The notes beneath the pieces were generated by a model, which was not told the DNA's origin, did no database searches, and saw only the letters and a list, made by a program, of their open reading frames with translations. 64,000 nt of DNA from contig MU008173.1 of the NCBI GenBank assembly GCA_010909165.1, positions 992,001 through 1,056,000 on the forward strand, written 5' to 3'. This DNA comes from Anthoceros angustus. Lineage: Eukaryota; Plantae; Anthocerotophyta. A program made the translations under genes and the position numbers. Shown here in pieces: positions 1,281 to 64,000 of this stretch. Position 1 is the stretch's first letter; every line of letters begins with the position of its first letter.

Positions 1281-1528
1281 AGGGCAGCGAGCAACAAAAA
1301 GAAAAGAAAGTGATAACCGCGAATGTCCCTTTCGGAGCATAGGAGGGGGAGGGCAGACTTTCGATTCTTAACACCTAAGACAAAAAAATGATCCGCGATT
1401 CGATCTCAGCAGCATTTTCTCAACCAAGAGTTCGGCACCACCCTGTCCAAGCTGTATGAAGACACTAAGCACCCGCCATTACTAGTAGCATCCCATCTAA
1501 GTGATGATGATACATCTGGCCAGGAACC

Positions 1529-2353: not shown

Positions 2354-2821
2354 ATGGCCAAGATCAAGGTCCACGAGCTGCGGGGCAAGAGCAAGGCGGA
2401 GCTGCTGAACCAGCTGAAGGAGCTCAAGGCCGAGCTTGCACTGTTGCGCGTCGCCAAGGTCACAGGCGGTGCCCCGAACAAGCTCAGCAAGATCAAGGTG
2501 GTGCGTTTGTCCATTGCGCAAGTGCTCACCGTCATTTCTCAGACTCAAAAGGCAGCTCTGCGGGCCGCCTACGCCAAGAGCAAGCGCCTACCGCTGGACC
2601 TGAGGCCCAAGAAGACTCGGGCCATCAGGCGACGGCTCACAAAGCACCAGGTTTGTGTTTTTTTTGGTTTCTCGTTTCTGATTGCATCCGCGCGGTTGCT
2701 GCAAATGAAGTCTGCTTGTTCTCATGCATATTATGCTTGCGGCCAGGCTGCTGCCAAGACGGAACGACAGAAGAAGAGGGAAGCATACTTCCCTCTCCGC
2801 AAGTATGCAGTGAAGGCTTAG
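2354..2821 (+). CDS. RPL35: 60S ribosomal protein L35 (uL29), copy 2. Exons 2354-2650 and 2747-2821, 96-nt intron
   Basis: Same 123-aa protein as copy 1 after removing GTTTGT...GGCCAG (2651-2746). Confidence 0.95.
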
Positions 2822-3709
2822 GGTTCCAGGCGAGATGTATCATCATCATTTAGATGGGATGCTACTAGTAATGGCGGGTGCTTAGTGTCTTCGTACAGCT
2901 TGGATAGAGTGGTAGCCGAATTCCTGGTTGAGGAAATGCTGCTGAGATCTCATCGCGGATCATTTTTTTTGTCTTAGGTCTTAAGAACCGAAAATTTGCC
3001 CACAACCGTTTGGCCACTGCACTAAAATTTGGTCTCCGATCTGGGGCCTGTGGAGCAGCCAGCCCGACCCGTTCGACACGTTGGTAGGTGACGGGCTGGC
3101 TTCGGAACGTGACGGGCTGCTGATCCTGCTCCGGGCGTCGACCATCTCTGGAAAATCCTTCCCCTCCCACCCATTTTCTCGGAAGTGGACGTGTTGGGAT
3201 CTTACACTGCCGCATGTCAAGGCTCGGTTGCTGTCAGGGGTGGACTCCCTGAGGTGAGGTCAGCCGGAGTTCCTTCTAGACTCCCAGAGAGCACACACAC
3301 CAATTTGCTGGTGCCATAAGGGGTGCTGTTGCTATACGACGGCGTGTTCAAGGACCACTATCGGAAGATGACTCTAACAAAAGACTATGGCAGGATCCCT
3401 GGTTGCTGTGTATGAATGACCACACCACCGTGACGGAGTGAGCAGAGTGGTTTGCATTACTTACCTACGCAGATTCTGTGCGTTCGGTTCTCTTTCGTCA
3501 CATTAGTTGAGGTGCTTCCATCATTTGGTGGGGCGCTTCTCAATCTGCCGATGAGGTCGTTACGCTTGGGCAGGCCGTCCCAGGCTGCCTCAGAGGCCCC
3601 GCGGGCTGTCAGATTTGTCTCGGGTTCGTTTGTAGGAGTCATCTCATCCGAAAGGGTTGAAAACTTCCATCTCCTAAAAGGTAGGTGAAGCTAGTGCCTT
3701 GTGACCTTG

Positions 3710-14354: not shown

Positions 14355-24119
<9,765 letters not shown>

Positions 24120-31945: not shown

Positions 31946-32838
31946 TTACTGTTCTTCTGCAATTGTAAATCCTAAGAGGTTACAGTAAGGGAAGTCTCGA
32001 TAGTCTCGGGAATCTCCTTGTGCGCATTTCCATTGCAACGTTGGTGGGCATACTCTTGTCACATGGAAGCAAAGGCTACGACAAGGTTTCACAAGCACGT
32101 AATTATAATTTCCAGGAAAGTCATCGGGACCATATATTGTTCCTTGTCCTTGTGCAGGAACGTTATTCGTTATGATGCATTCTTTGAACATTGTCCCACA
32201 TATCCAGTACTTGTATGCTTCCAAGCATTCATCACATGTATGCCTATATTGTGAGCATCCTCCTTGGGTAAGAAGGTTGTTCACTCTTGAGTACTCACAT
32301 TCTGGATGAAAAGACAAGTTGAAAGGAATGGTCTCTGACCTTCTAATTTTCTTGAAAGATGATAAATATTTTGTAGTAACTAGCAATTAGTAAGGTCTTG
32401 GTACAAAAAAAAATGATAGTTACCAGCAAAAAAATCCTCCTTTTTTCCAAGAGGCCATCCTGTGTTTTGTTCCACCCTAGCTTTTTGGAAGTTGATCATA
32501 GATGAGTTGCAAAACCATGGTGGCACATACCTCGTAACTCCTGAAGATGGATCTATGTAACCTTGTCCCACATTAGATGGACTTACTTGCGTACATTGGT
32601 GAGAAGTACAATCTTCAAGCAATGATTTGTACCATACTTTCCCTTTACTATCATACAATGGTAAAATTGTGCAAGGCAGTGGCTTAAAATTAGTACAATT
32701 TTCTAAGAGGTCCACACTATATTCATCTATTATTATACCTAAGATCTGTATTTTGTGTCTACCTTCTCCACATACAATAGGAATGCATAGTACTAAGAAA
32801 AGACAAGAACTTGTTAGTGACAAAACACTTGATTCCAT
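31946..32838 (-). CDS. Secreted cysteine-rich protein with Mid1/FAM155(NALF)-like domain, ~282 aa if a 44-nt intron (32380-32423) is spliced
   Basis: Signal-peptide-like N-terminus (MESSVLSLTSSCLFLVLCIPIVCG). C-terminal CDECLEAYKYWICGTMFKEC...VKPCRSLCFHVTRVCPPTLQWKC...CNLLG fits the Mid1/FAM155 pattern CxxCxxAYKxWxC...PCxxxCxxVxxxCP...C...CN. Family assignment is by motif recall only. Confidence 0.66.
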
Positions 32839-33171
32839 GCGTTTCAACCAGTCTAATTTTTTTTCTTATGCTAAATATTTAAAAATATGCTATGATACTT
32901 GATATTTTTTTCAATTTATCTATGGTAGATAGGTTCAATTTTCAGATATAATAAATATTTACATAATTATTAATTAAATAGAACATATTTAATAATAAGA
33001 GCGTTCTAGGTATACAACATCCAAACCCATAGTTTTTGTGCAGTTAACAAAGCTGCCGAACCATTCGAACCTAAAACTGTTTTTTTTAAACCTCCCAGGA
33101 GAGACCTTCCCCGTCCCAAAGCCTGCAGGCCAGAGCCAAAATGGTGCGCCTGCTATGTCTGTCGTGTTCAG

Positions 33172-43149: not shown

Positions 43150-43400
43150 AAAGAGACGAGGTGCCTTAGATTGTATCGTTCTGCCGGGATAAATATCGTT
43201 CTACTGGAATAAATAAGCGCTCCTTACAAAAGCAAATGCTTATAAAAAAGATTGGACAAAGACGGGATGCCCTAGATTGTATCGCTCATAAATAAGCGCT
43301 CCTAACAATGGCAAATGTTGATCAAAAAGACTGGACAGAGACGGGGTGCCCTAGATTGTACCGTTCTACCGAGATAAATAAGCGCTCCTCACGAGAGCAA
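43150..43400. repeat. Tandem array A: 3 degenerate ~80-110 bp units (GACG.G.TGCC.TAGATTGTA.CG...ATAAATAAGCGCTCCT)
   Basis: Units start near 43150, 43258 and 43337. Confidence 0.8.
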
Positions 43401-43914
43401 AACAAGCACGTGAGATCCCCATTCTTGTGGGTTTTTTTTAAAAGATGATCAAAAAAGTAGAAAAGCAAGTCAATCTCCATTCTTATGCGTTTTTTCTTAT
43501 CATGTGGGCTTGTTGAACAAAAATGTGGAAACTTTACACAGCAAAAGAAATCTCATCTACACTGCGTGATGAGTAATAACCCTCTAGAGGGCCGCGAGCC
43601 TTGGGGTCTAGCCCCTGCGATATTCTACCCGGAAAATACCAAGGATATTAAAGTCAGGTTTTTTCTTACAGGATGAGTAAGCAGAAAAAACAAGCAAGAG
43701 GAATCCCCATTTTTGCGCGTCTTTCTTATAGTTAGATAAGTACTTAGAGCAAAACAGGCAAGTGTACTTCTCATTCTTGTTGTTTCTACTTATAAGATGA
43801 ACAAGGAAAAGAGAACAATGAAGTGGGATCCTAATCCCATTACCGATTCACTGAATTGAATTGAGTTTCAACCATGAACGAAACTCCACTCGTCTGTCCA
43901 TTTTTGCTTGTTCT

Positions 43915-44695
43915 ATTGTGAACGTGTAGCCCGTAAGGCCATAAAGCCGAGGATGGATGGCACCCCATCCGAGCACTCATGTGTCCGTTTTTGCTTGTTT
44001 TTTTGTGAACGGGTATGACCCCATCGGGTCATAAAGCTGAGGATGGGTAGCGCCCAATCCGAGCACTTATTTGTCCAAAGGTTGTGAACGGGTATCATCC
44101 CACAGGGCCATGAAGTTGCGGATGGGTGGCACCCCATCTGAGCACTTATATGTGCGAAGGACGCTTGACTATAACAAGTGGCCTCGTAGGGCCATCAAGT
44201 TGAGGATGGGTGGCACCCCATCTGAGCACTTACTTGTCTGAAGGATGCTTAACTATAACAAGCAGCCTCATAGGGCCAACAAGATGAGGATGGGTGGCAC
44301 CCCATCTGAGGATGAATCGCAGGCTCAGAGACGAGGCCATGATGTGTATAGCAGATGGCCTTGTAGGACCATGAAGTTGAGGATGGGTGGCACCCTATTT
44401 GAGCACTAATCCATCCGTTCTTGCTTAATTTTTTGTTGTGAATGTGTATGGCCTTGTAGGGACATGAGGATGGGTGGCACTCCATCCGATTACCAATGCG
44501 TCTCTTTTTGCTATAACTGTCTGATCAATCCTTAACTATAATAGGGTGGCACTTTAGAGAGGAGGGCATGAAGTTGAGGATGGATGGCACCCCATCTGAG
44601 CACTGATGTGTCCATTTTTTGCTTTTTCTACTATAAACGTGTATGGCCCCATAGGATCATGAAGCTGAGGAAGGATAGCACCCCATCCAATGTTT
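43915..44695. repeat. Tandem array B: 9 units of ~79-110 bp with a conserved hairpin core GAGGATGGGTGGCACCCCATC(C/T)GAGCAC
   Basis: Cores at ~43949, 44039, 44118, 44202, 44286, 44379, 44466, 44576 and 44667. Confidence 0.88.
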
Positions 44696-44698
44696 AAT

Positions 44699-45110
44699 TA
44701 CCTGGAGTTCCAATGAGCCTATGTCTAGATGCCAACCCTTGATGGGAGGATTGAATGATTATTTTTGTTCACTAGGGTGGACGATCATCCAATGACAGTA
44801 ATCATGTTTTTTAGCTGTGCTTACTGACAATTACTCTTCACACGCTTACCTGTGGAGGTCTAATGAACCCATGTCTAGATGCCACTCTTTAAAGAGAAGA
44901 TTGAAAGATTATTTCTTCTGTCCACTAGAGTGGATGATTATCCAATGATAATAATAGTGCTTTTTAAATGTGCCCACTAACAATTACTCTTTGGAAGCTT
45001 AATTGTGGAGTCCGAAGAAACCCATGTCTAAATGTCACTCTTTGAAAGAGAGGGCCGAACATTATTTTTGTTCATTATGGTGGATAATTATCGAACAACA
45101 ATAATAATAC
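44699..45110. repeat. Tandem array C: 3 degenerate ~150-bp units (..GGAG..ATGAACCCATGTCTAGATGCCAC..GATTATTTTTGT..)
   Basis: Units start near 44699, 44847 and 45000. Confidence 0.78.
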
Positions 45111-45355: not shown

Positions 45356-47510
45356 CTAAACGTCGATCCCGAAAGTACCAACGGCCCCGAGTATGTCGTG
45401 GTTAGAGATAAGAAAAGGCCTACCTCTGATTGGAGCCGTTGATGCCACATCTCCCGTGCTCATTGCCGTCCAGTAAACAGCGTTGGCGAATGCCCTCCGT
45501 AGGGCGATGGAAACCCGTTGTCGAAAGAAAGCCACCATAGAGGAAAGGGGGAGATCCACCCCGTTTTCGTCGATCGTGGTAGGCTTTAGCACAATCCTGT
45601 ATGAGTTGTCCGAAATCCTTGCCCATGGCCCCGTGGGTCTCGATGGCGAGGGGAATGAAGGCATGGCCGTCCTGCATAGGCGTCTACTTGTGTACTTTCG
45701 TTTTTGCGCATCCCTCCCCCGCCCAAACTGGAGGGTTGATGATGACATGTTCACAAACGGTGTCCCGGGTAGGGTCCGTTACGATGACATCCACAATAGA
45801 GATTTGATCCTCCCTAGTCAGAAATAGATCCGCCCTGAGTGACATGCCATTGCGCAGGGTGTGTTGGGGTTCCCTATGGAAGAAATCCGCTCTCCTTGGC
45901 CATCGAGAACATGACGTCGCGAACGGCATCATGTGTAGCAATACGCTGCCCTCCAGCTGGATAGTGAGCCATGTAGACCCAAAGGCGTCGAGTGGGACCC
46001 CACTGCTGCAAGATGATAAAGAACAGGCCAAAGGCTGGACCAAGCCCGGGCGGAACCTCATCGTGGTAGAAAAAGAGGCTGATGCGATTCGGAAAGCCTG
46101 GATGCATGGTTGAGCCAGAAGCCAGTAGCCCTTTCCCTTCCCTCAGCAAGAGCAAAGGCGAGGCCAAGCAAGCCGGGGAATAGTAGAATCCAAAAGAAGG
46201 GTTCTCTGTGCCTGCCCGAACTGCTTCTCCTAAAGAGAGGCCTAAAGGCTGTGTAGCCTATCCACAGAAGCATGGCCGCCCTGGCCTCCGAGGATAGGGA
46301 ATCCCTAGCCAACCTTAGGGAAACCTGCAAGGGGAAGGTCCCCTCCTCAACACTTGAGACGAAGGCCTCTAAAATGGGAGAATCTCAGATTAAGAACCAA
46401 AGAGGGCCTAGCTCCTAAGGAAGTCCACTGACGCCGAGGCCTCCATGGCCAGCAAACTAGTGTCCCCGAAGGCTACCGGGTAGGGATGCTTGCCGTCTCG
46501 CCAGACCCTCTACAGCACACTTTAAGGTGCCTGGCCCAATGATGTCCCAACACGCTTGCATAACCTGTTTATCAAACTTCCCCAACCTTGATAGAAAAAT
46601 TCGGGAGGGAGCAACCTTTCTAGTGAGGTACCCTGGCTGACACGCGAAACAGGAAGAAAGGATGCCAAATGTCACATGAGGGTCCCCTAACTAAGAGAGG
46701 TCGCTGATGCGGGCCAATTCCTCCTCTAAAGCAACATCGACAAAACCTTGAATAAAGTCTGGGGGTCCCACTGGAACCCCCCAGACGTGAAGTCCTTGCG
46801 CGGAAGCAATGTTCCCCCCAGGATATTGAAGAAAGGCAGTGATGTCCGACGGGAACCAAACCTTGCACTTCAGGATCTTGACCCTCAAACCCAGGCGGGA
46901 TAGCTCTGAGAAGAAGAGTTCGAACTCTTCCCTAACCTCGTCCCCTGGTCCTAAGATATGAGTGTCATTCACCACGGACGGAAAGAGACACTCCTCGAAC
47001 GTGGAGGCAGTAGTGGATAGTGTCTTAAAGGGCGTCATGACGAAGAGGGCACCCCCAAGGGGTCCCTCTGCCGGTCGTCGAATCGACGGAAAGAGACACT
47101 CCTCGAACGTGGAGGCAGTAGTGGATAGTGTCTTAAAGGGCGTCATGACGAAGAGGGCACCCCCAAGGGGTCCCCCTGTCTCGTGCCAGTCGTCGAATCA
47201 AGTACGGAAACCCCTTCCGTAGATGGTTCATGCTGAATTAATGTAGAGGTTAGACGGAAAATCGCAGAAAGAGCGGACAAATAGAATAAGACTTGCCAGG
47301 TGCCTGCCAGCATCCTTGAGCTCCATAATAATAGGCATCCTAGAAACATTGTTGAAAGCATTCTCGACGTCCAACTGCAAGACAACCCAATCCGGAGGAA
47401 CCTCGACTCCAAATGCTGCTGACTCACAGCCCCCCGGAGTGGCAATCCCAAATTGATGGGGGCAAAGGTGCATGTCATGACACGGAGCGGTGCGTCTACA
47501 GATATCCAGG
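45356..47510 (-). mobile_element. 5'-truncated, degenerate non-LTR retrotransposon, CRE-like (RT + Cys/His motif + restriction-like endonuclease)
   Basis: RT: HLCPHQFGIATPGGCE, DWVVLQLDVENAFNNVSR, TTGTRQGDPLGGALF, VVNDTHILG, GLHVWGVPVG. C-terminus: GGQRIATHDAVRDVM, RADL..IVDVIVTDP..AKTKVHK, FIPLAIETHGAMG. Internal 108-bp-period tandem duplication at 46977-47176. Confidence 0.78.
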
Positions 47511-48257
47511 TTAATGTGTGTATGTGCACCATGCGCATGGTCGGCATGGTATGTGTTCCTGTGAGCATGTGTGACATGTGCGATATGTGGTGTATGTGTG
47601 ACTGGTGTGTGAGGACAGCGGGCATCAAGGGAACGAATCGGCTGTGAGTCACGGCGGCATTATTGCCCAAACGCCGGCAGCGGGCAATATGGCACGATTT
47701 CGGATTGAGCGTCACGGCGCCCGATGCGGGCGCCCGCGATTCAGCGAGAACGCCGAGTGCGTAGGTAGATAAAAGGGGCATAGGTCGTGTAGAAAGTCGG
47801 ATTGCTGATGTTTGTTCGATTGGGCAGCCATACGGATCCCAAGGGGTTTTTCCGTGCATGAGCTTTGGTAAAGGGGCAGTGACGGGTTTGTGCCTGGACA
47901 GGACAAGAACTGTCACATTTTGCACATCAGCAATCCCTTACAAAGCTCAGCCTGGCAGTTGTGCGCGTCAAAGAGCGGCGGAGCACCCAGGCGGAACGCC
48001 GACGGAAGAACCGTGACCCACTCGAGATAAGTCAATGGTGGAGATTGCTGAGAATGCTATAGATTATTCTGTGCTGTTTTATGCGGGTCGATCCATTCTT
48101 CACCTAGCCGCCTTGGCGGAACTAGAACCTCGTGCATGGCGGGCATGGGACGAAGTGATTGACAAGTGGCACAGCTAGCGGATTGGGTGAAGGCACCAAC
48201 ACTGACTTTGATGGAATGCCGTACATAGTCTCTCGCAGGGGAAGAGAGTGAGAGGGT

Positions 48258-51200
48258 GATGGTGTTCTTGCGCTCTGGCTGGACAAACGAGAATACACCT
48301 ATCCAAGAAGCTCGCATCCCATTCAAAGATCCATCGCCCCATGATTAGGAGGTCGATTCGAGTGGAGTCAAAGTCCCATTCGCCCATCGCATTTGAAGAA
48401 AGTGGTGGCGGAGCAAGAATGGAGTACGAGTCGGCGCCCAACAAAACGATGTGTTCACCGGTCGGCATGGTAGCATGTCGCTTGCCGACTTTGAAGAGAA
48501 GTTCAGGTGGGCAATCGATGAGATGGTGCTCAAATACAAATCGAGTTCACACCCGAGATGGCGAAAATGAGCACTTTCCTAGCGGAGAAGCGCCGACTTT
48601 GAAGAAAGTGGTGGAGCTAAGGAAAAGGACCAAATTTTGCAGGATGCACGGACTTTGGCGAGGGCGAGAAGGGCCAAGAAGGCGTCAAAGGGAAGTGAAG
48701 AGGAAGAGGCGTCAAGCTCCATGCAAGGTGATGCAATCACGTATTTAGTGGATGAAATGTTTGCCAAGTTTGGGGAGATGTTTTCGGTGTCCTCCATAGA
48801 AAAGATCCAAGAACTGTCAAAGTTCGTCATCAAGCCCAATGAACCTCTCAGGTCCGCCTATCTGAGGCTAAGGCAACTGGTGAAGGACACACGGGTGAAG
48901 ACGATGCGGGAAGCCGCCCAAATATACATAGCCGCGCTTCCGGGCAGGCAAAGGAGAGTGATTGCCAATTTCCTTCACATGATGCACGGTGCTGATTATG
49001 AGTTGGAGCAGGCCTACGAGATGGCTGAAAGGGTCATGAAAGGTGATGCTGTGACCAGCGCGTACTGGGAAGAACATAACCTGGTCAGGACGCATCAACC
49101 TGCCTCGAACACGCACCGGTTTCAAGGAAGAAATATGCCTCGGGAGACGCAGCAAGCGCTATGCGAGGAGTTCACCCGCTAAGGAGAGTGCGATCAAGGC
49201 AGCCACCACCAAGGCAACGGTGAAGTGCCTACGCTGCAGGGGGCCGCACAAAGCTTACGAGTGCGAATATCGACTCGGTGGAGCTAAGGAAAAGGAGGCA
49301 TGCAGAGCCTGTGCCAAGACAGGGCACACGGAGGCAGCATGCTGGCAGGCCCACCCCGAGCTTAAGCCTAGGGCGTCTGGTGAGCGGGTCGCCGACAAAG
49401 CTAGGCCGACAGTGGGTTATACCCGGAAAGCCTTGCTTAGCGAAGTACATAGGCTGCAAGAACAGTTGGCAATTGGCATGAGTGCGACTGGGAGTCCTGC
49501 TGCCGAGAATGCTATAGATTATTCTGCGGCCGCTTTTATGCGGGTCGATCCATTCTTCACCTAGCCGCCTTGGCGGAACTAGAACCCGCACTGCGGGTAG
49601 ATTGTGGGACGGCAGTGATTGACAAGTCGGCCCGGCTAGCGGATTGACCGGGAGGCACCAACACTCACTTTGATGGAATGCCGCATATAGTCTCGCAGGG
49701 AAGAGAGTGAGAGGGTGATGGTGTTCTTGCGCCTGGTGGACAAACGAGAATACACCCATCCAAGAAGCTCGCAGTCCGCCATTCAAAGATCCATCGCCCA
49801 CCGATTAGGAGGTCGATTCGAGTGGAGTCAAAGTCCCATTCGCCCATCGCATTTGAAGAAAGTGGTGAGCAAGAATGGAGTACGAGTCGGCGCCAAAGAA
49901 AACGATGTGTTCACCGGCAAGATAGTAGCATGTCTCTTGCCGACTTTGAAGAGAAGTTCGTGGGCAATCGATGAGATGGTGCTCAAATACAAGTCCGAGT
50001 TCACACCCGAGATGGCATCGAGAAAATGAGCACTTTCCTAGCGGAGAAGCGCCGACTTGTTACGGACCGAAGGACCAAATTTTGGCAGAAGGGCCAAGAA
50101 GGCCAAAGGGAAGTGAAGAGGAAGAGGCGTCAAGCTCCATGCAAGGTGATGCAATCACGTATTTAGTGGATGAAATGTTTGCCAAGTTTGGGGAGATGTT
50201 TCCTGTCCTCCATAGAAAAGATCCAAGAACTGTCAAAGTTCGTCATCAAGCCCAATGAACCTCTCAGTCCGCCTATCCGAGGCTAAGGCAACCGTGAAGG
50301 ACACACGGTGAAGACGATGCGAAGCCGCCCAAATATACATAGCCGCGCAGGCAAAGGCAAGGAGAGTGATTGCCAACTTCCTTCACATGATGCACGGTGC
50401 TGATTATGAGTTGGAGCAGGCCTACGAGATGGCTGAAAGGGTCATGAAAGGTGATGCCGTGACCAGCGCATCGGAAGAACATAACCGTCGACGCATCAAC
50501 CCGCCTCGAACACGCACCGGTTTCAAGGAAGAAATATGCCTGGGAGACGCAGCAAGCGCTATGCGAGGAGTTCACCCGCTAAGGAGAGTGCGATCAAGGC
50601 AGCCACCACCAAGGCAACGTGAAGTGCCTACGCCAGGGGCCGCACAAAGCTTACGAGTGCGAATATCGACTCGGTGGAGCTAAGGAAAAGGAGGCATGCG
50701 AGCTTGTGCCAAGACAGGCACACGGAGGCAAAGGAGGCGTGGTGCCCGGACTTTGGCGGGCCCGAGCTTAAGCCTAGGGCGCCCGTGAGCGGTCGCCGAC
50801 AAAGCTAGGCCGAGTGGGTTACACCGAAAGCCTTAGCGAAGTACACAGGCTGCAAGAACAGTTGGCAATTGGCATGAGTGCGACTGGGAGTCCTGCTGCC
50901 GAGAATACACCCATCCAAGAAGCTCGCAGTCCCGCCATTCAGTATCCATCAGTCTACAGATTAGGAGGTCGATTCGAGTGGAGTCAAAGTCCCATTCGCC
51001 CCATCGCATTTGAAGAAAGTGGTGGCGGAGCAAGAATGGAGTACGAGTCGGCGCCCAGCAAAAACGATGTGTTCACCGGTCGGCATGGTAGCATGTCGCT
51101 TGCCGACTTTGAAGAGAAGTTCAGGTGGGCAATCGATGAGATGGTGCTCAAATACAAATCGAGTTCACCCGAGATGGCATCGAGAAAATGAGCACTTTCC

Positions 51201-52020
51201 TAGCGGGCCGACTTGTTCTGAGGAAAAGGACCAAATTTTGCGGGATGCGGACTTTGGCGAGGCGAGAAGGGCCAAGAAGGCGTCAAAGGAAGTGAAGAGG
51301 AAGAGGCGTCAAGCTCCATGCAAGGTGATGCAATCACGTATTTAGTGGATGAAATGTTTGCCAAGTTTGGGGAGATGTTTTGTGTCCTCCATAGAAAAGA
51401 TCCAAGAAGCTCAAAGTTCGTCATCAAGCCCAATGAACCTCTCAGTCCGCCTATCCGAGGCTAAGGCAAGTGAAGGACACACGGTGAAGACGATGCGGAA
51501 GCCGCCCAAATATACATAGCCGCTTGGCGGCAAGGAGAGTGATTGCCAACTTCCTTCACATGATGCACGTGCTGATTATGAGTTGGAGCAGGCCTACGAG
51601 ATGGCGAAGGGTCATGAAAGGTGATGCCGTGACCAGCGCATCTTGGGGAAGAACATAACCGTCGACGCATCAACCCGCCTCGAACACGCACCGGTTTCAA
51701 GGAAGAAATATGCCTCGGAGACGACGCAGCAAGCGCTATGCGAGGAGTTCACCCGCTAAGGAGAGTGCGATCAGCACCACCACCAAGGCAACGGTGAAGT
51801 GCTTGCGGGGGGCCGCACAAAGCTTACGAGTGCGAATATCGACTCGGTGGAGCTAAGGAAAAGGAGGCGTGCAGAGCTTGTGCCAAGACAGGGCACACGG
51901 AGGCAGCATTCTGGCAGGCCCACCCCGAGTTTAAGCCTAGGGCGTCTGGTGAGCGGGTCGCCGACAAAGCTAGAGGCAGTGGGTTACAAAGCCTTGCTTA
52001 GCGGCACATAGGCGCAAGAA
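48258..52020 (+). pseudogene. Three tandem gag-like segments (~48258-49560, ~49715-50900, ~50900-52020). A fourth lies at ~53553-54570
   Basis: Repeated KNDVFTG..MSLADFEEKFRWAIDEMV, GDAITYLVDEMFAKFGE, and a double zinc knuckle CLRCRGPHKAYEC...CRACAKTGHTEAAC. Confidence 0.78.
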
Positions 52021-52312
52021 CAGCTTGGCAATTGGCATGAGTGCGACGAGTCCAAGTGCGCCTGTCAAGAATACGACTCGGACACGGTGTACGCATTGAT
52101 GGCCCCAAGGGCAATGGACGCATGAGCTTGGGGAATTCTATTCAAAGAAAGAAGTCCGAGGAAGAAACCAACTCAAGATGCCCAAGTCCTTGAGCAGTGA
52201 GGAGAATGAAGGAGTGTCGTCTCAAGCTAAGAAGGCATCAAGTCAAGTCCTCCTTGAACGGGCAATGGATGCACCCGGTGAGCGGTCGCCGACAAAGCTA
52301 GGCCGACAGTAG

Positions 52313-53100
52313 GTGAAAGCCTTGCTTAGCGGGCACATAGGCCGCAAGAACAGCTTGGCAATTGGCATGAGTGCGACCGAGTGCGCCTGTCAAGAATACG
52401 ACTCGGACCAAGTATACGCATTGATGGCCCCAAGGGCGTGGACGCATGAGCTTGGGGAATTCTATTCAAAGAAAGAAGTCCGAGGAAGAAACCAACTCAA
52501 GATGCCCAAGTCCTTCGTGCAGAGTGAGGAGAATGAAGGAGTGTCGCCTCAAGCTAAGAAGGCATGGCGTCAAATCCTCCTTGAAAGGGCAATGGATGCA
52601 CCCATGGTGAGCCTGCGAGATCTGGGAGTAAGAACACAACCTTTCAAGCAAGTCATGCAAGCCTGGATGAGGAAGGAGTCTATGGAAGGAGGCGTGGTGC
52701 CTGGATTGGCTAGTTTACGAGGAGAGCATCTGAAACCAACAGCGCGAGGCAAAGGAGGCATCGCCATGGTGAACAATCAGAACCGGGAAGTCACCGTTGA
52801 TGGCTTCGCACCAGAATGCGTGTTGGTCGACACCGGTGCGGATCCGGTGTTGCTTGGAGCAAGGGTGCAGCAGGCGCTTCAGCTGTATGGAAGTAAGCTG
52901 AAGCCATGCGAGGTGCGCATCACCACCTCCGCAGGGACTAAGGAGCAGGTGATGGGCATAACCCGCGATCCAGTACGAATTGAGCTCAAACCCGCATCAA
53001 GATTCCACCGCCATCGGCACGATGCTTGGTGTCCGATGCCGACGTGTTGCTCGGTCGATGCCACTCATGGTCCGGCGATGGGGTGGACCCATTGCACTCG
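52313..53100 (+). pseudogene. Retroviral-type aspartic protease region (damaged second copy at ~54570-55200)
   Basis: ECVLVDTGADPVLLG, with the catalytic DTG at 52829-52837. Confidence 0.8.
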
Positions 53101-55639
53101 ATGGCGTTTTACGCGATGGCAAGAGGGAGATTTCACGCATGTAGCAAGGATACCGCTGGACATGTGCCGACGTGATGAGCGTGGGGCCATGATGGCACTC
53201 ACGGCATGTGGCGGCGCGAGGCGAGATATGGGAAGAAACCCAAGAACCGATGAGGGAAGAAGTGCCGAACGGCAAGTAAGGGATGTATGTATATCAAGAA
53301 CACTCCCATGCCGTCACTAGCATTGGCAAGAGAGCATGTTCGAAAGGACAATCAAGGCATGGCGGATGGCGTGGGGCCACACCGCCACATCAATAAGGCG
53401 GAGCTGCGTATCAACAATGAAGTACGAGGGCAAGCGGACGTCCGTGGGATCCACCTCATGGAGCTATGCTCGGCATCGGGTGGAAGCCGTGTTGAAAAGT
53501 GGCTTGCGGGTAAAAAATACACGCGTTGAGTCGGATGAGAAGACACGCGGTGTGAGCAAGAATGGAGTACGAGTCGGCGCCAAAGAAAACGATGTGTTCA
53601 CCGGCAAGATAGTAGCATGTCTCTTGCCGACTTTGAAGAGAAGTTCGTGGGCAATCGATGAGATGGTGCTCAAATACAAGTCCGAGTTCACACCCGAGAT
53701 GGCATCGAGAAAATGAGCACTTTCCTAGCGGAGAAGCGCCGACTTGTTACGGACCGAAGGACCAAATTTTGGCAGAAGGGCCAAGAAGGCCAAAGGAAGT
53801 GAAGAGGAAGAGGCGTCAAGCTCCATGCAAGGTGATGCAATCACGTATTTAGTGGATGAAATGTTTGCCAAGTTTGGGGAGATGTTTCCGGTGTCCTCCA
53901 TAGAAAAGATCCAAGAACTGTCAAAGTTCGTCATCAAGCCCAATGAACCTCTCAGGTCCGCCTATCTGAGGCTAAGGCAACTGGTGAAGGACACACGGGT
54001 GAAGACGATGCGGGAAGCCGCCCAAATATACATAGCCGCGCTTCCGGGCAGGCAAAGGAGAGTGATTGCCAACTTCCTTCACATGATGCACGGTGCTGAT
54101 TATGAGTTGGAGCAGGCCTACGAGATGGCTGAAAGGGTCATGAAAGGTGATGCTGTGACCAGCGCGTACTGGGAAGAACATAACCTGGTCAGGACGCATC
54201 AACCTGCCTCGAACACGCACCGGTTTCAAGGAAGAAATATGCCTCGGGAGACGACGCAGGCAAGCGCTATGCAGAGGAGTTCACCCGCTAAGGAGAGTGC
54301 AGTCAACAGTGCAGCCACCACCAAGGCAACGGTGAAGTGCCTACGCTGCAGGGGGCCGCACAAAGCTTACGAGTGCGAATATCGACTCGGTGGAGCTAAG
54401 GAAAAGGAGGCGTGCAGAGCCTGTGCCAAGACAGGCACACGGAGGCAAGACGGGCAGCCCACCCCGAGTTTAAGCCTAGGGCGCCCGTGAGCGGTCGCCG
54501 ACAAAGTGCGGGTTATACCCGGAAAGCCTTGCTTAGCGAAGTACATAGGCTGCAAGAACAGTTGGCAATGGCATGAGTGCGACAGGGAGTCCAAGTGCGC
54601 CTGTCGAAGAATACGACTCGGACACGGAAGTATACGCATTGATGGCCCCAAGGGCAGCGGACGGCATGAGCTTGGGGAATTCTATTCAAAGAAAGAAGTC
54701 TGAGGAAAGAAACCAGCTCAAGATGCCCAAGTCCTTCAGGCAGAGTGAGGAGAATGAAGGAGTGTCGTCTCAAGCTAAGAAGGCATCAAGTGCCGAAGTC
54801 CTCCTTGAACGGGCAATGGATGCACCCATGGTGAGCCTGCAAGATCTGGGAGTAAGAGCACAACCTTTCAAGCAAGTTATGCAAGCTTGGATAAGGAAGG
54901 AGTCTCTGGAAGGAGGCGTGGTGCCTGGACTGGCTAGTTTACGAGGAGAGCATCTGAAACCAACAGGCAAAGGAGGCATCGCCATGGTGAACAATCGTAA
55001 CCGGAAATCACCGTTAATGGTTTCGCACTGACGCGTTGGTCGACACCGCGGATCCGGTGTTACTAGGGGCAGGCAGCAGCGCCACCGTATGGAAGTAAGC
55101 CATGCGAGGTGCGCATCACCACCTCCGCAGGACTAAGGAGCAGTGATGGGCATAACCCGCGATCCAATACGGATTGAGCTCAAACCCGCATCAAGATTCC
55201 ACCGCCATCGGCACGATGCTTGGTGTCCGATGCCGACGTGTTGCTCGGTCGATGCCACTCATGGTCCGGCGATGGGGTGGACCCATTGCACTCGATGGCG
55301 TTTTACGCGATGGCAAGAGGGAGATTTCACGCATGTAGCAAGGATACCGCTGGACATGTGCCGACGTGATGAGCGTGGGGCCATGATGGCACTCACGGCA
55401 TGTGGCGGCGCGAGGCGAGATATGGGAAGAAACCCAAGAACCGATGAGGGAAGAAGTGCCAGACGAACGGCAAGTAAGGGAATGTATGTATATCAAGAGC
55501 ACTCCCATGCTGTCACTAGCATTGGCAAGAGAGCATGTTCGAAAGGACAATCAAGGCATGGCGGATGGCGTGGGGCCACACCGCCACATCAATAAGGCGG
55601 AGCTGCGTATCAACAATGACGTAGTACGAGGGCAAGCGG

Positions 55640-56600
55640 ACGTCCGTGGGATCCACCTCATGGAGCTATGCTCCGGCATCAGCAGCGGGCTGGAAGCCGT
55701 GTTGAAAAGTGGCTTGCGGGTAAAAAAATACACGTGCGTTGAGTCGGATGAGAAGACGCGTGCGGTGGCCAGAGCAAGAATTGTTAGATTGCAAAGGAAG
55801 TATCCTGAATTGCTGAGCATCGAAGCAATCAAGGGTTGTCAAAGCAGAGTGCCCCCGGACATCATGTTGGTGGGGAAACGACAGCTTGAGGCAATCAGGT
55901 GTCGTGTGGACATGCTAATCGCAGGATGGGAGAGTCGAACTTTTTCCAGAGCCGGGCGCGGTTATGGCAACAGTGTAGAGATGGCCGCCGAGGTGATCCG
56001 AATCCTAAGGGAAGTGCAGTTGCGCAATCCAAGTTGCTGGTACATTTTGGAGAATGTATGTGGGGCATTTGATAAACGTGAGAACGTCAGGAGGGACTAT
56101 GAGCAGCTCAGGTGATGGTTGGGTGAAGAATTCATCATCGATGCAGCCCAGACTGGGTCATATGCTCACCGAGTACGGAGCTTTTGGACAAACATGGCTG
56201 AAGTGGAAATTCTCAGGCATTGACGATTCCGGTGGAAAAGTATGTGGATGAAATTCTGGAGGAAGGGCGACGCTCGCAGTCAGTACGCAGAAAGGATAGA
56301 CCGCCACACTTCCCAGTCAACGTAGTAGGTGCCGCCAAGGGCCTGGCCCACACTGGTAAGGACTGCACAATCATATGCGTTCCGAAGGGGAGGGGATGGC
56401 ATGGTGCTGGATGTGAACGGAAATGAAATCGGGGAACCCACCATAAGGGAACGAGAACGGGCCATGGGATTCGATGCAGGCGGTACCTTCACACACGGTA
56501 TTTCCGAAGCATATCGATGCAAACTGGTGGGGCAGGCTTTTGACCTTAACTGCTTACAATGGCTATTAGCTGTGGGCATGGCCACCCAAGTGACCGGGGA
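55640..56600 (+). pseudogene. C5 DNA cytosine methyltransferase domain embedded in the retrotransposon polyprotein. Second copy ~57040-57890, motif I-II fragment ~53440-53550
   Basis: Motif I IHLMELCSGISSGLEAV, motif II VESDEKTR, motif IV VDMLIAGWESRTFSRAG, motif VI YILENV, motif VIII DAAQTGSYAHRVRSFWTN, motifs IX-X PTIRERERAMGFDAG...RCKLVGQAFDLNCL. Frameshifts after ~56110. Confidence 0.85.
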
Positions 56601-58048
56601 TAACAGCTTTTGCCATACTTGCTGAAGGCGACGGTTTTCCAGTAGAGCCAAGCAAGGGGCACCGCGCCATGAACGCCGCGATGGCAAGAGGGAGATTTCA
56701 CGATGTGGCAAGGATACCGCTGGACATGTGCCGACGTGATGAGCGTGGGGCCATGATGGCACTCACAAAGATGTGGCGTAAATCGCGACCAAGCGAGATA
56801 TGGGAAGAAACCCAAGAACTGATGAGGGAGGAAGTGCCAGACGAACGGCAAGTAAGGGAATGTATGTATATCAAGAGCACTCCCATGCTGTCACTAGCAT
56901 TGGCAAGAGAGCGTGTTCGGAAAGGACAGTCCAAGGCATGGCGGATGGCGATGGCGCCGGAGGGTCACGCGCAAAGACCGCCACATCAATAAGGCGGAGC
57001 TGATCAACAATGAAGTAGTACGAGGGCAAGCGGACGTCGTGGGATCCACCTCATGGAGCTATGCTCCCAAGATCGCCGCTGGAAGCCGTGTTGAAAAGTG
57101 GCTTGCGGGTAAAAAAATACACGTGCGTTGAGTCGGATGAGAAGACGCGTGCGGTGGCCAGAGCAAGAATTGTTAGATTGCAAAGGAAGTATCCTGAATT
57201 GCTGAGCATCGAAGCAATCAAGGGTTGTCAAAGCAGATTGCCCCCGGACATCATGTTGGTGGGGAAACGACAGCTTGAGGCAATCAGGTGTCGTGTGGAC
57301 ATGCTAATCGCAGATGGGAGAGTCGAACTTTTCCGAGCCGGGCGCTATGGCAACAGAGATGGCCGAGGTGATCCGAATCCTAAGGCGCAATCCAAGTTGC
57401 CGGTACATTTTGAGAATGTATGTGGGGCATTTGATAAACGTGAGAACGCGAGGGACTATGAGCAGCTCAGCGATGGTTGGGTGAAGAGTTCATCATCGAT
57501 GCAGATCGGGTCATATGCTCACCGAGTACGGAGCTTTTGGACAAACATGGTCAAGTGGAAATTCTCAGCAAAGATTGGCATTGACGATTCCGTGGAAAAG
57601 TATGTGGATGAAATTCTGGAGGAAGGGCGACGCTCACACGAGACGGGATAGACCGCCACACTTCCGATCAACGTAGTGGGTGCCGAAGGGCCCGCCACAC
57701 CGTAAGGACCGCACAATCATATGCTCCGGGAGGGATGGCATGGTGCCGGATGAACTAAATGAAATCGGGAACCCACCATAAGGAACGAACGGGCCATGGG
57801 ATTCGATGCAGGCGGTACCTTCACACATGGTATTTCCGAAGCATATCGGTGCAAACTGGTGGGGCGCTTTTGACCTTAATCGCATAATGGCTATTAGTGT
57901 GGGGCATGGCCACCCAAGTGACCGGGATAATTTTGCTTTGCTTGTCAAGGCGACGGTTTTCCAGTAGAGCCAAGCAAGGGGCACCGCGCCATGAACGCCG
58001 CAATGACAGAAACGCCACCAAGGGACAAAAATGATCTAAGGGAAACAC

Positions 58049-58843
58049 ATGAGTGGCAGATTTGTGAAGAACTGGAGGAGGTCGATCGGCAAAAGATTCG
58101 GAGTATGCTGCAACACAACCGGTGCTTTCGCGTTCAGCTGGGCTGAGCTGGGGCGGTATGACAAAGTAAAATTCAAGATCACCACCACCACTCAAGAGCC
58201 CATATTTCGACGAAGACATAAGTTGAGTCCCATGGAGTGGGAGATTGTGGACAAGCGATGCAAGGAGTTGGCAAAGGCAGGGCTGATTAGGAAGTCAACC
58301 TCTCAATACGCTGCTGCCACGGTGTTGCCGTTGAAGAAGGATGAGAATGGTGAATGGAAGGACAGGCGAATGTGCGGGGATTATCGCACGTTGAACGAAG
58401 TCACACCTATGGAGCGGTACCCCATGCCCACTCCTGATGAAATTTTTGATGCCATAGGGCAAGCCAAGTATTTCACTACAGTGGACTTTCGATCTGGGTT
58501 CAACCAGATTGTCATTGAAGAGGGAGACAAGTGTAAGACAGCGTTTTGGGGCAAGGATCAACTTTGGGAATGGGAAACGATGCCGTTTGGCTTGAAGAAC
58601 GCATCTATATACTTTCAGCGGGTAGCTGACTTAGAGCTACAAGGGCTGCCCTTTGTGAGGTGCTACATAGACGATATTCTGGTATTTAGTAACACATTAG
58701 GGGAACATCTTGAACACCTGGAAGTCCTGCTGCAGAGATTGGCCAAGTCGGGGTTGAAAGCACATCCCAAAAAGTGCAAGTTTGCCTACAAAGAGATAGA
58801 GTATTTGGGACATAAGATTGTTCCAGGTGGGGTGCTGCCTTAG
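58049..58843 (+). pseudogene. Ty3/Gypsy reverse transcriptase
   Basis: GLIRKSTSQYAAATVLPLKKD..RRMCGDYRTLN..YPMPTPDEIF..FTTVDFRSGFNQI..KTAF..WETMPFGLKNA..FQR..YIDDILVFS..KKCKF..IEYLGHKI. Stops and frameshift at the RT-RNase H connection. Confidence 0.95.
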
Positions 58844-58869
58844 TTGGCCAAGGTATAGGCGGTGAACCT

Positions 58870-59340
58870 CATGCCCAGCCAAAGATGTTGCCACCTTGAG
58901 GGCCTTCCTGGGGCTTGTCAACTACTATCGTCGTTTCATCAGAAACATGAGTGGAACCTGCAAAGTGCTGTATGACTTGCTCAAGAAAGGTGCCCGCTGG
59001 CAGTGGGGTCATGCACAGGAACAAGCATGGCAGGAGCTAAAGAACCAGTTGACGGAGAGACCAATGCTTAGAAGGCCCAACTTTGACAAACTTTTCATCT
59101 TATATACGGACTGGAGTGCAGCCGGGATTGGAGCAGTGTTGGCACAAGCAGATGAAGAGGGGAAGGAGCGGGTTGTCGCATACGCAAGTAGGTCCAACAA
59201 TACAGTAGAAACAAATTATTCGTCTTATGAAGGCGAATGCTTAGCAGCAGATATGGTGTTGCATTTCGGGTATATTTGTTTGGCCGAGCTCACGGACCAT
59301 CACCACCACCACATTGGCTAATGACGATATGAAGTTAAGC
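58870..59340 (+). pseudogene. Ty3/Gypsy RNase H (partial second RT-end/RNase H copy at ~60330-60900)
   Basis: LRAFLGLVNYYRRFI..FILYTDWSAAGIGAVLAQ..VVAYASRSNN..NYSSYEGECLAA. Confidence 0.9.
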
Positions 59341-62300
59341 GGAAAGCTTGCTAGGTGGGCACTCGCCTCATCACGCAAGGTGTTCAAACGATCGTGGATT
59401 CTCAAAGAAGTTCCACTGGAAGATGTAGAAGCCGGTGACCAAGGTGCATAAACGCTTGGCCACTTTGGTGTCAAACGGACGCATCACATGCTCAAGAACA
59501 CATACTGGGTCCGTATGTATGGCGTTGAGAAGGTGGTTGCCAAGTGCGCGCTTGTGATGCCGTAAAAGCCGTGTTTAATAGTCAAGATGTCATGCGCACT
59601 CATTACCTATCGGGGCTTTTCTTCGATGGTCCGTAGACTTGATGCCCGAGCCGCCGGTTACAAACAGGCAATCGACATCGTATGCTCATGATAGAACACT
59701 TCTCAAAGTGGGTTGAGCTAGCCTTCCTTCCGGCCGGAAGCTCACGACAAGGTGTTCGTAAACGATCGTGGGATTCTCAAAGAAGTTCCGCCCGTGGAAG
59801 ACAGAAAGCGGCTGGTGACCAAGGTGCATAAAACGCTTGGCCACTTCGGTGTCAAACGAACGCATGATATGCTCAAGAATACATATTTCTGGTCAGGTAT
59901 GTATGCTGACGTTGAGAAGATGGTTGCCAAGTGCGCCGCTTGCGATGCTGTAAAAGCCAGATTTAACAGCCAAGATGTCATGCTGCACTCATTGCCTATC
60001 AGGGGGCTTTTCTTCAGGTGGTCCGTAGACTTGATGCCCGAGCCGCTACCAAACAGGCAATCGACATCGTATGCTCATGATAGAACACTTTCAAAGTGGG
60101 TTGAGCTAGCCTTCCTTCCGGCCGAGCTCACAGACACAAAGACGAGCCTTCTTGCAGTGTGTTCTTAGTAGATATGGGAGTTGTCAAGTATTAGCCGGCA
60201 GGCAATGAGGTGAGTTTCAATATTTGCTTAATAGTAGCCGATTGATCACGGACATCACGAGATCATCCACAAGTGACGGGTTGGCGGAGCGGTTGGTTCA
60301 AACCTTCAAGGATTCGCCGCAATCGCATCGGGTTGAAAGCACATCCCAAAAGTGCAAGTTTGCCTACAAAGAGATAGAGTATTTGGGACATAAGATTGTT
60401 CCGTGGGTGGCCACCAAGGTGGCGGAACCTCATGCCCACTCCAAAGATGTTGCCACCTTGAGGGCCTTCGGGCTTGTCAACTACTATCGTCGTTTCATCG
60501 AAACATGAGTGGAACCCGCAGTCGTATGACTTGCTCAAGAAAGGTGCATAAACGCTTGGCCACTTTGGTGTCAAACGGACGCATCACATGCTTAAGAACC
60601 AGTTGAGAGACCAATGCTTAGAAGGCCCAACTTTGACAAACTTTTCATCTTATATACGACCGGAGGCACGGATTGGAGCAAAGGTTGGCACAAGATGAAG
60701 AGGGAAGGAGCGGGTTGTCGACACGCAAGTAGGTCCAACAATACGCCAGAAGCAAATTATTCGTCTTATGAAGGCGAATGCTTAGCAGAAGATGGAAGTG
60801 TACTGCATATATGTATTTAGCCCAATTGTCACGGACCATCACCACTACATTGGCTAATGACGAATATGAAGTTAAGCGGAAAGCTTGCTAGGTGGGCACG
60901 CTGTATCACGACGGCAAGGTGTTCAAACGATCACGGGATTCTCAAAGAAGTTCCACTGGAAGATGTAGAAGCCGGTGACCAAGGTGCATAAACGCTTGGC
61001 CACTTTGGTGTCAAACGACGATCACATGCTTAAGAACACATACTGGGTCCGTATGTATGCCGACGTGAGAAGGTGGTTGCTGGCGCGCCGCTTGTGATGC
61101 CGTAAAAGCCGTTTAATAGTCAAGATGTCATGCCGCACTCATTACCTATCGTGGGGCTTTTCTTCGATGGTCCAGTAGACTTGATGCCCGAGCCGCTACC
61201 AAACAGGCAATCGACATCGTATGCTCATGATAGAACACTTTCAAAGTGGGTTGAGCTAGCCTTCCTTCCGGCCGAGCTCAAAGACACAAAGACGAGCCTT
61301 CTTGGCAAAGGTGTTCTTAGTAGATATGGGAGCAGCCGGGCATTGATGCATCAGTGGCAATGAATTCGAGGTGAGTTTCGCGCCGCTTGACCGTAGCCCG
61401 ATTGATCACAGTGACATCACGAGATCATCCACAAGCCGACGGGTTGGCGGAGCGGTTGGTTCAAACCTTCAAGGATTCGCCGCAAATACCGCACTGTTGA
61501 GCCTAGTTGTTGGGATGAGTTGCCGCCATATGTGGCATTGGGTTCTGGATAAGCGACAGCGCCTTGGGTAACTTCACCATATTACATCATGTTCGCCGAA
61601 ACGCGTGATGCCAAACATTGTAGCGGATACATACCCAAGCCGCTGAATCGGGCACAGGACCCCGAGGTGTGCCTTTGAGTTGCAACAGAGAACGGTTGTT
61701 CCAACGGTAATGCCAATGGCGATGGACAATCCGCCATAGCACAAGACCGGACCAACTTAGATATGCATTCACAAGAGGTGGTTCGTGGAAACCAAAAGCA
61801 AGAAAGTTTGAAGTGGAGATTTCGTATTTACAAAGATCGATGGTCCAGTAGACTTGATGCCCGAGCCGCTACCAAACAGGCAATCGACGTATGCTCATGA
61901 TAGAACACTTTCAAAGTGGGTTGAGCTAGCCTTCCTTCCGGCCGAGCTCACAGACACAAAGACGAGCCTTCTTGCAGTGTGTTCTTAGTAGATATGGGAG
62001 TTGTCAAGTATTAGCCGGCAGGCAATGAGGTGAGTTTCAATATTTGCTTAATAGTAGCCGATTGATCACGGACATCACGAGATCATCCACAAGTCGACGG
62101 GTTGGCGGAGCGGTTGGTTCAAACCTTCAAGGATTCGCCGCAATCGCATCGGGTTGAGCCTAGTTGTTGGGATGAGTTGCCGCCATATGTGGCATTGGGT
62201 TCTGGATAAGCGCATGTGCCTTGGGTAACTTCACCATATTACATCATGTTCGCCGAAACGCGTGATGCCAAACATTGTAGCGGATACATACCCAAGCCGT

Positions 62301-63160
62301 TGAATCGGGCACAGGACCCCGAGGTGTGCCTTTGAGTTGCAACAGAGAACGGTTGTTCCAACGGTAATGCCAATGGCGATGGACAATCCGCCATAGCACA
62401 AGACCGGACCAACTTAGATATGCATTCACAAGAGGTGGTTCGTGGAAACCAAAAGCAAGAAAGTTTGAAGTGGAGATTTCGTATTTACAAAGATCGATGG
62501 TCCAGTAGACTTGATGCCCGAGCCGCTACCAAACAGGCAATCGACGTATGCTCATGATAGAACACTTTCAAAGTGGGTTGAGCTAGCCTTCCTTCCGGCC
62601 GAGCTCACAGACACAAAGACGAGCCTTCTTGCAGGTGTTCTTAGTAGATATGGGAGTTGTGTCAAGCGCATCGGCAATGAATTCGAGGTGAGTTTCGCTA
62701 CCGCTGACCGTAGCCCGATTGATCACGGACATCACGAGATCATCCACAAGCCGACGGGTTGGCGGAGCGTTGGTTCAAACCTTCAAGGATTCGCCGCAAC
62801 ACCGCATCTGAGCCTAGTTGTTGGGATGAGTTGCCGCCATATGTGGCATTGGGTTACGGATAAGCGACAGCGCCTTGGGTAACTTCACCATATTACATCA
62901 TGTTCGCCGAAACGCGTGATGCCAAACATTGTAGCGGATACATACCCAAGCCGTTGAATCGGGCACAGGACCCCGAGGTGTGCCTTTGAGTTGCAACAGA
63001 ACGGTTATTCCAACGGGTAATGCCAATGGCGATGGACAATCCGCCATAGCACAAAGACCGGATCAACTTAGATATGCATTCACAAGAGGTGGTTCGTGGA
63101 AACCAAAAGCAAGAAAGTTTGAAGTGGAGATTTCGTATTTACAAAGATCGACCGCACCTT
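59340..63160 (+). pseudogene. Integrase in about five overlapping partial copies (~59340-59750, 59750-60300, 60900-61830, 61830-62490, 62490-63160)
   Basis: HHCC motif VHKTLGHFGVKRT..YFWSGMYADV..CAACDAVK; core WSVDL, SKWVELA, GNEFEG, GLAERLVQTFK; C-terminal GGSWKPKARKFEV. Confidence 0.87.
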
Positions 63161-63257
63161 AGACGCCAAGACAGTCGCTTAATCTACGCCAGAAAAGGAC
63201 GGAGAGCAAGGTGTAATTGAATTAGAGGGACAGGATGGTCGCCGATGCAAAGAGCAC

Positions 63258-63557
63258 ATGCGGCATCTGGCGCCTTGTCACCTACCCAACCTTGACACAA
63301 GGACGCAACCACAAGCGTGGAAGCCACCAGTTGACCTACCTTGCGGCTCTTGTGGTCACATCACAGATCCTGAGCTGATGCTCCTTTGTGACCAATGTAA
63401 CGGTGGGTATCACATCTTTTGTTTGCGTCCGCCGCTCAAAGAGATTCCAGATGGAGATTGGTTCTGCCATCGGTGCCTTCCACAGATGCTGAATTCGCGA
63501 GCTGGGGGGCTCAGCATACCACCCGCCCGCGAGTCGGGCTCGTCCACAAAAAATTAG
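63258..63557 (+). CDS. PHD finger at the C-terminus of the retrotransposon integrase (C4HC3 at 63342-63476)
   Basis: CGSCGHITDPELMLLCDQCNGGYHIFCLRPPLKEIPDGDWFCHRC. Confidence 0.92.
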   Translation: MRHLAPCHLPNLDTRTQPQAWKPPVDLPCGSCGHITDPELMLLCDQCNGGYHIFCLRPPLKEIPDGDWFCHRCLPQMLNSRAGGLSIPPARESGSSTKN

Positions 63558-64000
63558 GGTTACCCCACATAAGCCCGGCCGCCGTTGTCCGGCAACAAAC
63601 GCGGCAGGTGGAGAGTGAAGGGTGATCAAGCGGTAATATGAAGGAGAGTGTGAGATTTGTTGAAGAACCAGGTTCCTTGTCTAAAGTGGGGTTTCGGGCA
63701 GTCTTGGGTGTGGCCGATGGTGAAGGGACAAGTACGGTGGAGTGAAGAGGTCTTGGGGCGAAGAAGCACCGACGGCAGCCGGTCATAGCCCAATCTGAGA
63801 GTTGCACAGCTCTGTAAGGGATTGTCGAAGCTACCAACAAGGCGTATCCACCGATCCTGCGAAGGAGCAGCAAGTTAGCGAAAGGGGGTGAAGGCGCGCA
63901 AGCATCGATTGGTGCAATTGCCGTGTTTCAAGGCGTCAGCGCTTGTGTGCGATCTCAAGTAGGTCAGTGTACGTGGCGCAGTGAAGGCCTAGCTAACGGT

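Follow-up and report, generated by a model that had tools for sequence, protein, structure and literature searches.

The 64-kb window (the whole stretch of DNA analysed here) combines gene-dense streptophyte DNA with a single Ty3/Gypsy family, which occupies the plus strand from about 47.5 kb to the end of the window. The order protease–reverse transcriptase (RT)–RNase H–integrase and a Ty3-like RT place the element in the Ty3/Gypsy class. Between protease and RT lies a DNMT3-type C5 DNA methyltransferase (DNMT) domain, and the coding region closes with a PHD finger:

47473..48035, plus strand: 5′ terminus, likely terminal repeat A plus leader, beginning TGTCATGAC and interrupting a LINE fragment
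48046..54490, plus strand: putative gag region, about four overlapping tiles; longest frames 48583–49182 and 53729–54490; a Cys/His-rich stretch
52754..53071, plus strand: aspartic protease, DTG at 52829–52837 (PF13650, E=0.0011; tblastn with L060 ORF1, E=1.5e-9)
53440..53553, plus strand: DNMT fragment with motifs I–II, stopping at a piece junction (weak match to the relatives' HMM, iE 1)
~54990–55280, plus strand: second piece of the protease, frameshifted
55645..56590, plus strand: DNMT3-type C5 methyltransferase, copy 1; the whole domain, split over four frame pieces, with a TGA at 56113
55921..55950, plus strand: motif IV, AGWESRTFSR, Ser (AGT, 55933–55935) for the catalytic Cys and Arg for the next Gln
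57040..57900, plus strand: DNMT copy 2, more eroded than copy 1 (41 gaps relative to it), same Ser-Arg at 57321–57326
58124..58860, plus strand: Ty3/Gypsy RT with YIDD (PF00078, E=7.8e-30)
58880..59330, plus strand: RNase H (PF17919, E=6e-27)
59725..63150, plus strand: integrase, H2C2 zinc finger and core, several overlapping tiles (PF17921, E=2e-17)
63340..63480, plus strand: C-terminal PHD finger (PF00628, E=2e-11), frame end 63557

The 9-mer TGTCATGAC occurs once in the window, at 47473, where the LINE fragment breaks off. The terminal repeat of metagenome relatives, including L032 and L068, starts with the same word. A second copy of 47473..48035 was not found in the window (63100–64000 gave no match), nor was a terminal repeat pair for the element found within it; the window ends 443 bases past the stop of the PHD frame, and in three relatives the 3′ terminal repeat lies ~284 bases after the PHD match. 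The gag assignment was made from position, the region having no gag match in Pfam. The best PDB matches of the RT are RT/RNase H 4ol8 (E=1.6e-37) and Ty3-G Gag-Pol 7q5b (E=1e-36), and those of the PHD finger are the PHDs of ATXR5, KDM5B, WSTF, CHD4, KDM5A, ORC1b and BAZ2A. We take the PHDs of ATXR5, KDM5A/B (PHD1), BAZ2A and CHD4 to be readers of unmethylated H3K4. Rfam and tRNA searches of the window gave no matches.

The interrupted LINE fragment (45356–47472, minus strand) is a non-LTR element in which RT-like and endonuclease-like motifs can be recognized by eye. It has no Pfam match, is presumably CRE-like, and contains an internal duplication of ~108 bases (46977–47199). Upstream of it, 43200–45100 holds degenerate tandem repeats of ~80–150 bases. 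Elsewhere in the flanking DNA there are two RPL35 genes, an inverted pair 96% alike (1351–3001), and a Mid1-like gene on the minus strand (31949–32865; PF12929, E=4.6e-8; Atlas 0.85, a lead only), which is AT-rich and poor in CpG and CWG, like silenced DNA. Two regions (16000–24000 and 5675–9470) carry long multi-exon genes with CpG o/e of 0.28–0.47 and an excess of CWG; for exons of long host genes the values are 0.30–0.47 for CpG and 1.4–2.0 for CWG. This pattern of CpG depletion and CWG excess resembles gene-body methylation, which has been reported in Klebsormidium nitens (PMC5890265) and is reportedly lacking in bryophytes, Anthoceros agrestis among them (PMC10952607), so it favours an algal host.

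An eIF(iso)4G gene with no intron over at least 700 codons lies on the minus strand at 27772–30379; frame breaks in its GC-rich 5′ part indicate that some indel errors occur in host genes too. When rooted on Coleochaete scutata, the gene branches next to a clade of the 16 land plants included (94/97), in one-gene trees of 45, then 18, of 120 matches and a set with no named hornwort or zygnematophyte. AU tests narrowly rejected its placement with a clade of mosses and liverworts (p=0.031) and with the tracheophyte clade (p=0.025). It departs from columns invariant in land plants at 3 of 162 positions, none in common with Coleochaete, which has 14 departures. These few departures favour a hornwort, as does the absence of named zygnematophytes from the 120 matches. 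The host is a streptophyte near the land plants, with a hornwort and a zygnematophyte alga about equally probable, so the land-plant host suggested in the earlier note is one of two readings. Published work on Zygnema genomes (PMC11096116) and on 123 bryophyte genomes (PMC12513842) did not tip the balance.

The earlier note had claimed a C5 methyltransferase domain between protease and RT, and this is upheld: motifs I, II, the IV region, VI (ENV), VIII, IX and X follow in order on the plus strand. The check proposed with PF00145 succeeded in part. The best result was E=0.016 and 15.1 bits, under the 22-bit cut-off, and Pfam recognized none of the remaining DNMT frame pieces; the identity is carried by other profile and fold evidence. 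A 60-relative HMM from which the window sequence was left out covers copy 1 over positions 3–332 of 335 in four frame pieces (iE 4e-42, 2e-12, 2e-6 and 3e-29). All 30 of 30 ESM Atlas matches are PF00145, and a profile search of the PDB ranks DNMT3A (4e-21) ahead of HhaI (1e-11) and DRM2 (3e-11). An AlphaFold model of the N-terminal half of the domain has a pLDDT of 87, and its fold search returned DNMT3A/B/C in every listed row. Searching 1.84 billion representatives with phmmer produced 467 matches to the DNMT domain. With a 164-aa DNMT piece, a word-based search found no match among longer proteins and phmmer against the PDB gave chance matches only; a single-sequence fold of this piece was poor (pLDDT 53) and was excluded from the analysis.

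Part of the polyprotein argument made previously from the ORF 55402–56115 also stands. The frame begins with a GTG and has 237 uninterrupted codons, which extend from the linker to a short way beyond motif VI, between a stop just before 55387 and the TGA at 56113. It reaches neither the protease nor the RT, so membership of the domain in the polyprotein rests on relatives and not on the window sequence. At the DNMT–RT junction, two window pieces disagree by indels on the common reading frame. The domain is intronless, non-rearranged, DNMT3-related and inside the Gypsy coding region, as in streptophyte Gypsy-DNMT3 elements.

Motif IV reads AGWESRTFSRAG. It had been listed as present, overlooking that its catalytic Cys is replaced by Ser (AGT at 55933 in copy 1 and at 57321 in copy 2). 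Both DNMT pieces have AGT-CGA (Ser-Arg) where relatives have Cys-Gln, and thus neither copy has the nucleophilic Cys of a competent C5 methyltransferase. Cys is present in 144 of 147 protein rows and 62 of 63 DNA loci among the relatives, and Ser in none. Copy 1 keeps 31 of the 32 columns conserved at 85% or above, the catalytic Cys being the sole miss; the chance of one random miss hitting this column is ~1/32. The motif I glycine loop, the Glu-Asn of motif VI, the RxR of motif VIII and motifs IX–X are all retained, and about three residues just downstream of motif IV (motif V region) are absent or eroded. Cys mutants of DNMT3A retain some activity, a point for which the literature search gave no confirmation. 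Because C5 is activated through a covalent adduct with the motif IV Cys (PMC5062992), the DNMT domain of the element is likely to be inactive or much weakened. The Ser codon is seen in two pieces of one noisy assembly, and both could derive from one insertion.

Self-comparison divides 48046–63151 into ~10 staggered, overlapping pieces of 0.6–3.1 kb that are 85–98% alike. The two methyltransferase copies and fragment described in the earlier note are present as sequences, in the form of overlapping, indel-ridden pieces and not of internal domain duplications. DNMT copies 1 and 2 differ by 39 mismatches and 52 gap openings, mostly of 1–2 bases; the RPL35 pair, a real host duplicate, has 25 mismatches and 3 gaps. 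Gag, protease and DNMT lie within one unbroken piece (53554–56686), and DNMT, RT and RNase H within the next (56677–59749). Of 73 unique substitutions that separate the pieces away from gaps, 35 hit the third codon position (p=0.007) and 34 are silent, a bias that would not come from read error alone. The DNMT pair by itself has third-position changes at 7 of 13 (not significant), so its two pieces could be one insertion. Overall, the tiling has most likely arisen in assembly, as a mosaic of error-prone reads that stem from several young copies of the family under selection.

Domain orders in relatives were read with Pfam from 30 long matches among the 150 listed of the 467. Sixteen have the order RT-RH-DNMT-INT, three have DNMT-INT-PHD only and three carry the DNMT before the RT; the rest comprise four with gag/protease before DNMT and no RT, and four other arrangements. 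P0189 and P0278 encode CCHC-protease-DNMT-RT-RH-integrase in one open frame (2188–2327 aa), and the DNMT is in the same reading frame as the RT in P0189, P0140 and P0134. Named members with protease/gag ahead of the DNMT come from K. nitens, four Closterium strains, Mesostigma viride and Calypogeia fissa. The named protein of the last shows the DNMT, with the protease supplied by unnamed members of its 90% cluster, and this cluster has the best identity to the window DNMT (42–45%). Nine named C. fissa proteins sit on scaffolds of five sizes (1.6–24 Mb). The Gypsy-DNMT3 family therefore occurs in land plants, as these named proteins show. Neither such a family in a land plant nor a form of it lacking the Cys was found described in the literature searched, from which most subscription papers fell outside scope.

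A large clade (including P0131, P0149, P0194 and P0216) has the DNMT between RNase H and integrase, together with a PHD and, in two, a G-patch; no mention of this arrangement was found in the literature searched. In Closterium NIES-53/54 (P0165/P0303), a related DNMT lies inside a Copia-type polyprotein (RVT_2, SH3), and in P0210 a C5 DNMT is joined to a Dam domain.

Among metagenome loci, the full PR-DNMT-RT-RH-INT-PHD order is present in 12 of 80 and PR-DNMT-RT in 32 of 80, shares that are biased, as the query was picked from the PR-DNMT-RT type. Metagenome contigs searched with a single protein gave no close relative, and 30 viral-contig loci gave partial-domain matches only (28–48% identity). 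Relative L068, near the Calypogeia protein by identity, has A-coding-B-A-B split repeats (1676–2017 and 10238–10805, 92–94% alike) on a Gypsy body. This layout fits the repeat structure of KnitGypsy-Dnmt3, which is compared with DIRS in the legend of Fig. 4c of PMC5890265.

In the Calypogeia-like clade, the DNMT and RT are in the same frame, separated by a stop. An in-frame stop followed by CAR lies 44–51 codons before the RT in 24 of 41 loci (among them L032, L040, L060, L062, L071 and L085), which are related copies and not independent; the full CARYYA is present in five, with a background of 0.2% for CARYYA. L099 has TGA-CGG directly after the DNMT. An in-frame stop with CARYYA is a readthrough context, and in this clade the stop-CAR is likely to separate gag-PR-DNMT from RT-RH-INT-PHD via stop-codon readthrough, which would make the DNMT as abundant as Gag. 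By contrast, no stop-CARYYA signal was found between DNMT and RT in the window.

Trees were built from near-full-length domains only, with 78 proteins for the DNMT and 28 for the RT, and without host DNMT3 genes. In one DNMT tree, a group of 26 rows (SH-aLRT 86) unites the window with Klebsormidium, Closterium and Calypogeia, and the RT-RH-DNMT-INT group is separate (SH-aLRT 97). A second DNMT tree puts it in a five-row group with Klebsormidium (82), the DNMT-before-RT elements forming an unresolved base and not one clade. In the RT trees the window joins the DNMT-before-RT elements (92 and 94). The supports of 86–94 for the window's groups are quick SH-aLRT values under 95, and hence moderate, as is the support for grouping its DNMT with the K. 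nitens retroelement DNMT3. The window forms a deep branch of its own (length 0.8–1.0), outside the Calypogeia-like clade. Of the two origins offered in the earlier note, the surviving streptophyte lineage is supported by the domain order, the terminal 9-mer and both the DNMT and RT trees, and one old capture inherited through streptophytes appears to fit best.

The closest published system is KnitGypsy-Dnmt3, a Ty3/Gypsy element of K. nitens with a DNMT3-type domain (de Mendoza et al., 2018; PMC5890265); streptophyte Gypsy-DNMT3 is named again in PMC12344493, and as known in bioRxiv 10.64898/2026.05.21.726589. Like the window element, KnitGypsy-Dnmt3 has an intronless, unrearranged domain in the Ty3/Gypsy coding region. 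The K. nitens protein GAQ93235.1, which we infer to be a copy of it, has the CCHC-protease-DNMT order of the window and falls in the same tree group. Unlike the Ser of the window, the key residues of KnitGypsy-Dnmt3 are reported as conserved (PMC5890265), and the window comes from a host other than Klebsormidium. The relatives from Closterium spp., M. viride and C. fissa also have the protease-DNMT(-RT) order of the window, and the Cys is retained in the domains shown at full length. Dinoflagellates likewise have retroelement-borne C5 DNMTs, SymbioDIRS-Dnmt3 and SymbioLINE-Dnmt, but these belong to a tyrosine recombinase DIRS element and a LINE and are described as independent acquisitions (PMC5890265). 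SymbioDIRS-Dnmt3 methylated CG de novo in yeast; KnitGypsy-Dnmt3, the sole Gypsy DNMT tested, gave no methylation in yeast, a result that the authors regard as inconclusive (PMC5890265).

Taken together, the window probably contains a gag-protease-DNMT3-RT-RNase H-integrase-PHD Gypsy element of an old streptophyte lineage, assembled as a mosaic and bearing a Ser-containing DNMT3 that is likely inactive or weakened. It seems unlikely that the family instead encodes an active DNMT3 methylating its own cDNA, the Ser having come from an error of assembly or from a mutation confined to a single insertion. Such an explanation would draw on the abundance of indel errors in the region, the intactness of every other conserved column, the near universality of Cys among relatives and the TGA of copy 1 versus the CGA of copy 2, which indicates that decay or error does strike the domain. 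However, both pieces are identical across the Ser codon despite their 39 differences elsewhere, two substitutions would be needed, one of them a transversion, and no reading frame has Cys at this point. The element also has no overall CpG loss (0.87–0.88), against 0.28–0.79 in seven of eight Cys-bearing relatives, although this comparison is weak and confounded by host methylation.

That the tiling is real, with one decayed insertion having expanded from within through successive microhomology jumps and its domain being a fossil, is improbable. Piece junctions do carry common short words of ~6–12 bases, and no 3′ terminal repeat occurs within 443 bases past the last stop, where three relatives have theirs after ~284. 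Assemblers too would be expected to join at common words, however, while short gaps outnumber substitutions, the opposite of the RPL35 pair, and the silent-site bias between pieces is unlike post-insertion decay. That a land-plant Gypsy captured a host DNMT independently, the other origin raised earlier, or that a host DNMT gene merely lies inside the element, is highly improbable despite the window's long branch outside the Calypogeia-like group in trees that contain no host DNMT3 genes, since the domain is intronless and occupies the place that it has in algal and liverwort elements, its nearest sequence relatives are retroelement polyproteins, its DNMT and RT both join same-order elements of Klebsormidium, Closterium and Calypogeia, and the terminal motif is common to the family.

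If the window element is an old Gypsy-DNMT3 with a changed motif IV, it may depart from the cycle that can be proposed for its Cys-bearing relatives. In these, the DNMT would be packaged with RT in the particle, where the protease would free it. It would then methylate CG on new cDNA before integration, as proposed by de Mendoza et al. (2018; PMC5890265). A methylated new copy would arrive resembling host DNA, and the PHD finger, judged by its likenesses, would guide integrase to nucleosomes with unmethylated H3K4. The window lineage appears to have kept the SAM-binding, base-flipping and DNA-contact motifs and lost the nucleophile, so the domain likely folds and binds DNA without efficient writing of the mark. 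The Cys to Ser change weakens, as far as this lineage goes, the earlier idea that the element sets its epigenetic state by itself.

It is possible, if doubtful, that a young multi-copy family dropped the Cys while the fold remained under selection, yielding a pseudo-methyltransferase that would shield cDNA or divert host DNMT3 as a DNMT3L-like decoy. DNMT3L and inactive DNMT3B isoforms have the DNMT3 fold without catalysis and act via an active DNMT3 partner (PMC5062992); they serve as an analogy for the decoy reading only, and differ in being host chromatin cofactors and not retroelement domains. The element is CWG-poor (0.68), with CpG o/e of 0.87–0.88 overall and 0.55 in the RT, the reverse of the long host genes. 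This composition is weakly consistent with host CHG silencing and carries no footprint of CG self-methylation.

Absence of such elements from land plants 'such as tracheophytes' is stated in PMC6338049. The relatives described here indicate an old streptophyte family whose range, with Mesostigma at one end and a liverwort at the other, exceeds that of the published Klebsormidium case. For bryophytes at least, this range conflicts with that statement. Should the Ser prove to be an artefact, the element is another copy of a family already known from algae, seen in a noisy assembly. Otherwise, the missing nucleophile is a new, testable twist on a known kind of element, and a whole fold kept without it would provide a natural experiment on which of the two, catalysis or binding, selection favours in retroelement DNMTs. 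A hornwort host would extend the Gypsy-DNMT3 lineage to all three bryophyte lines.
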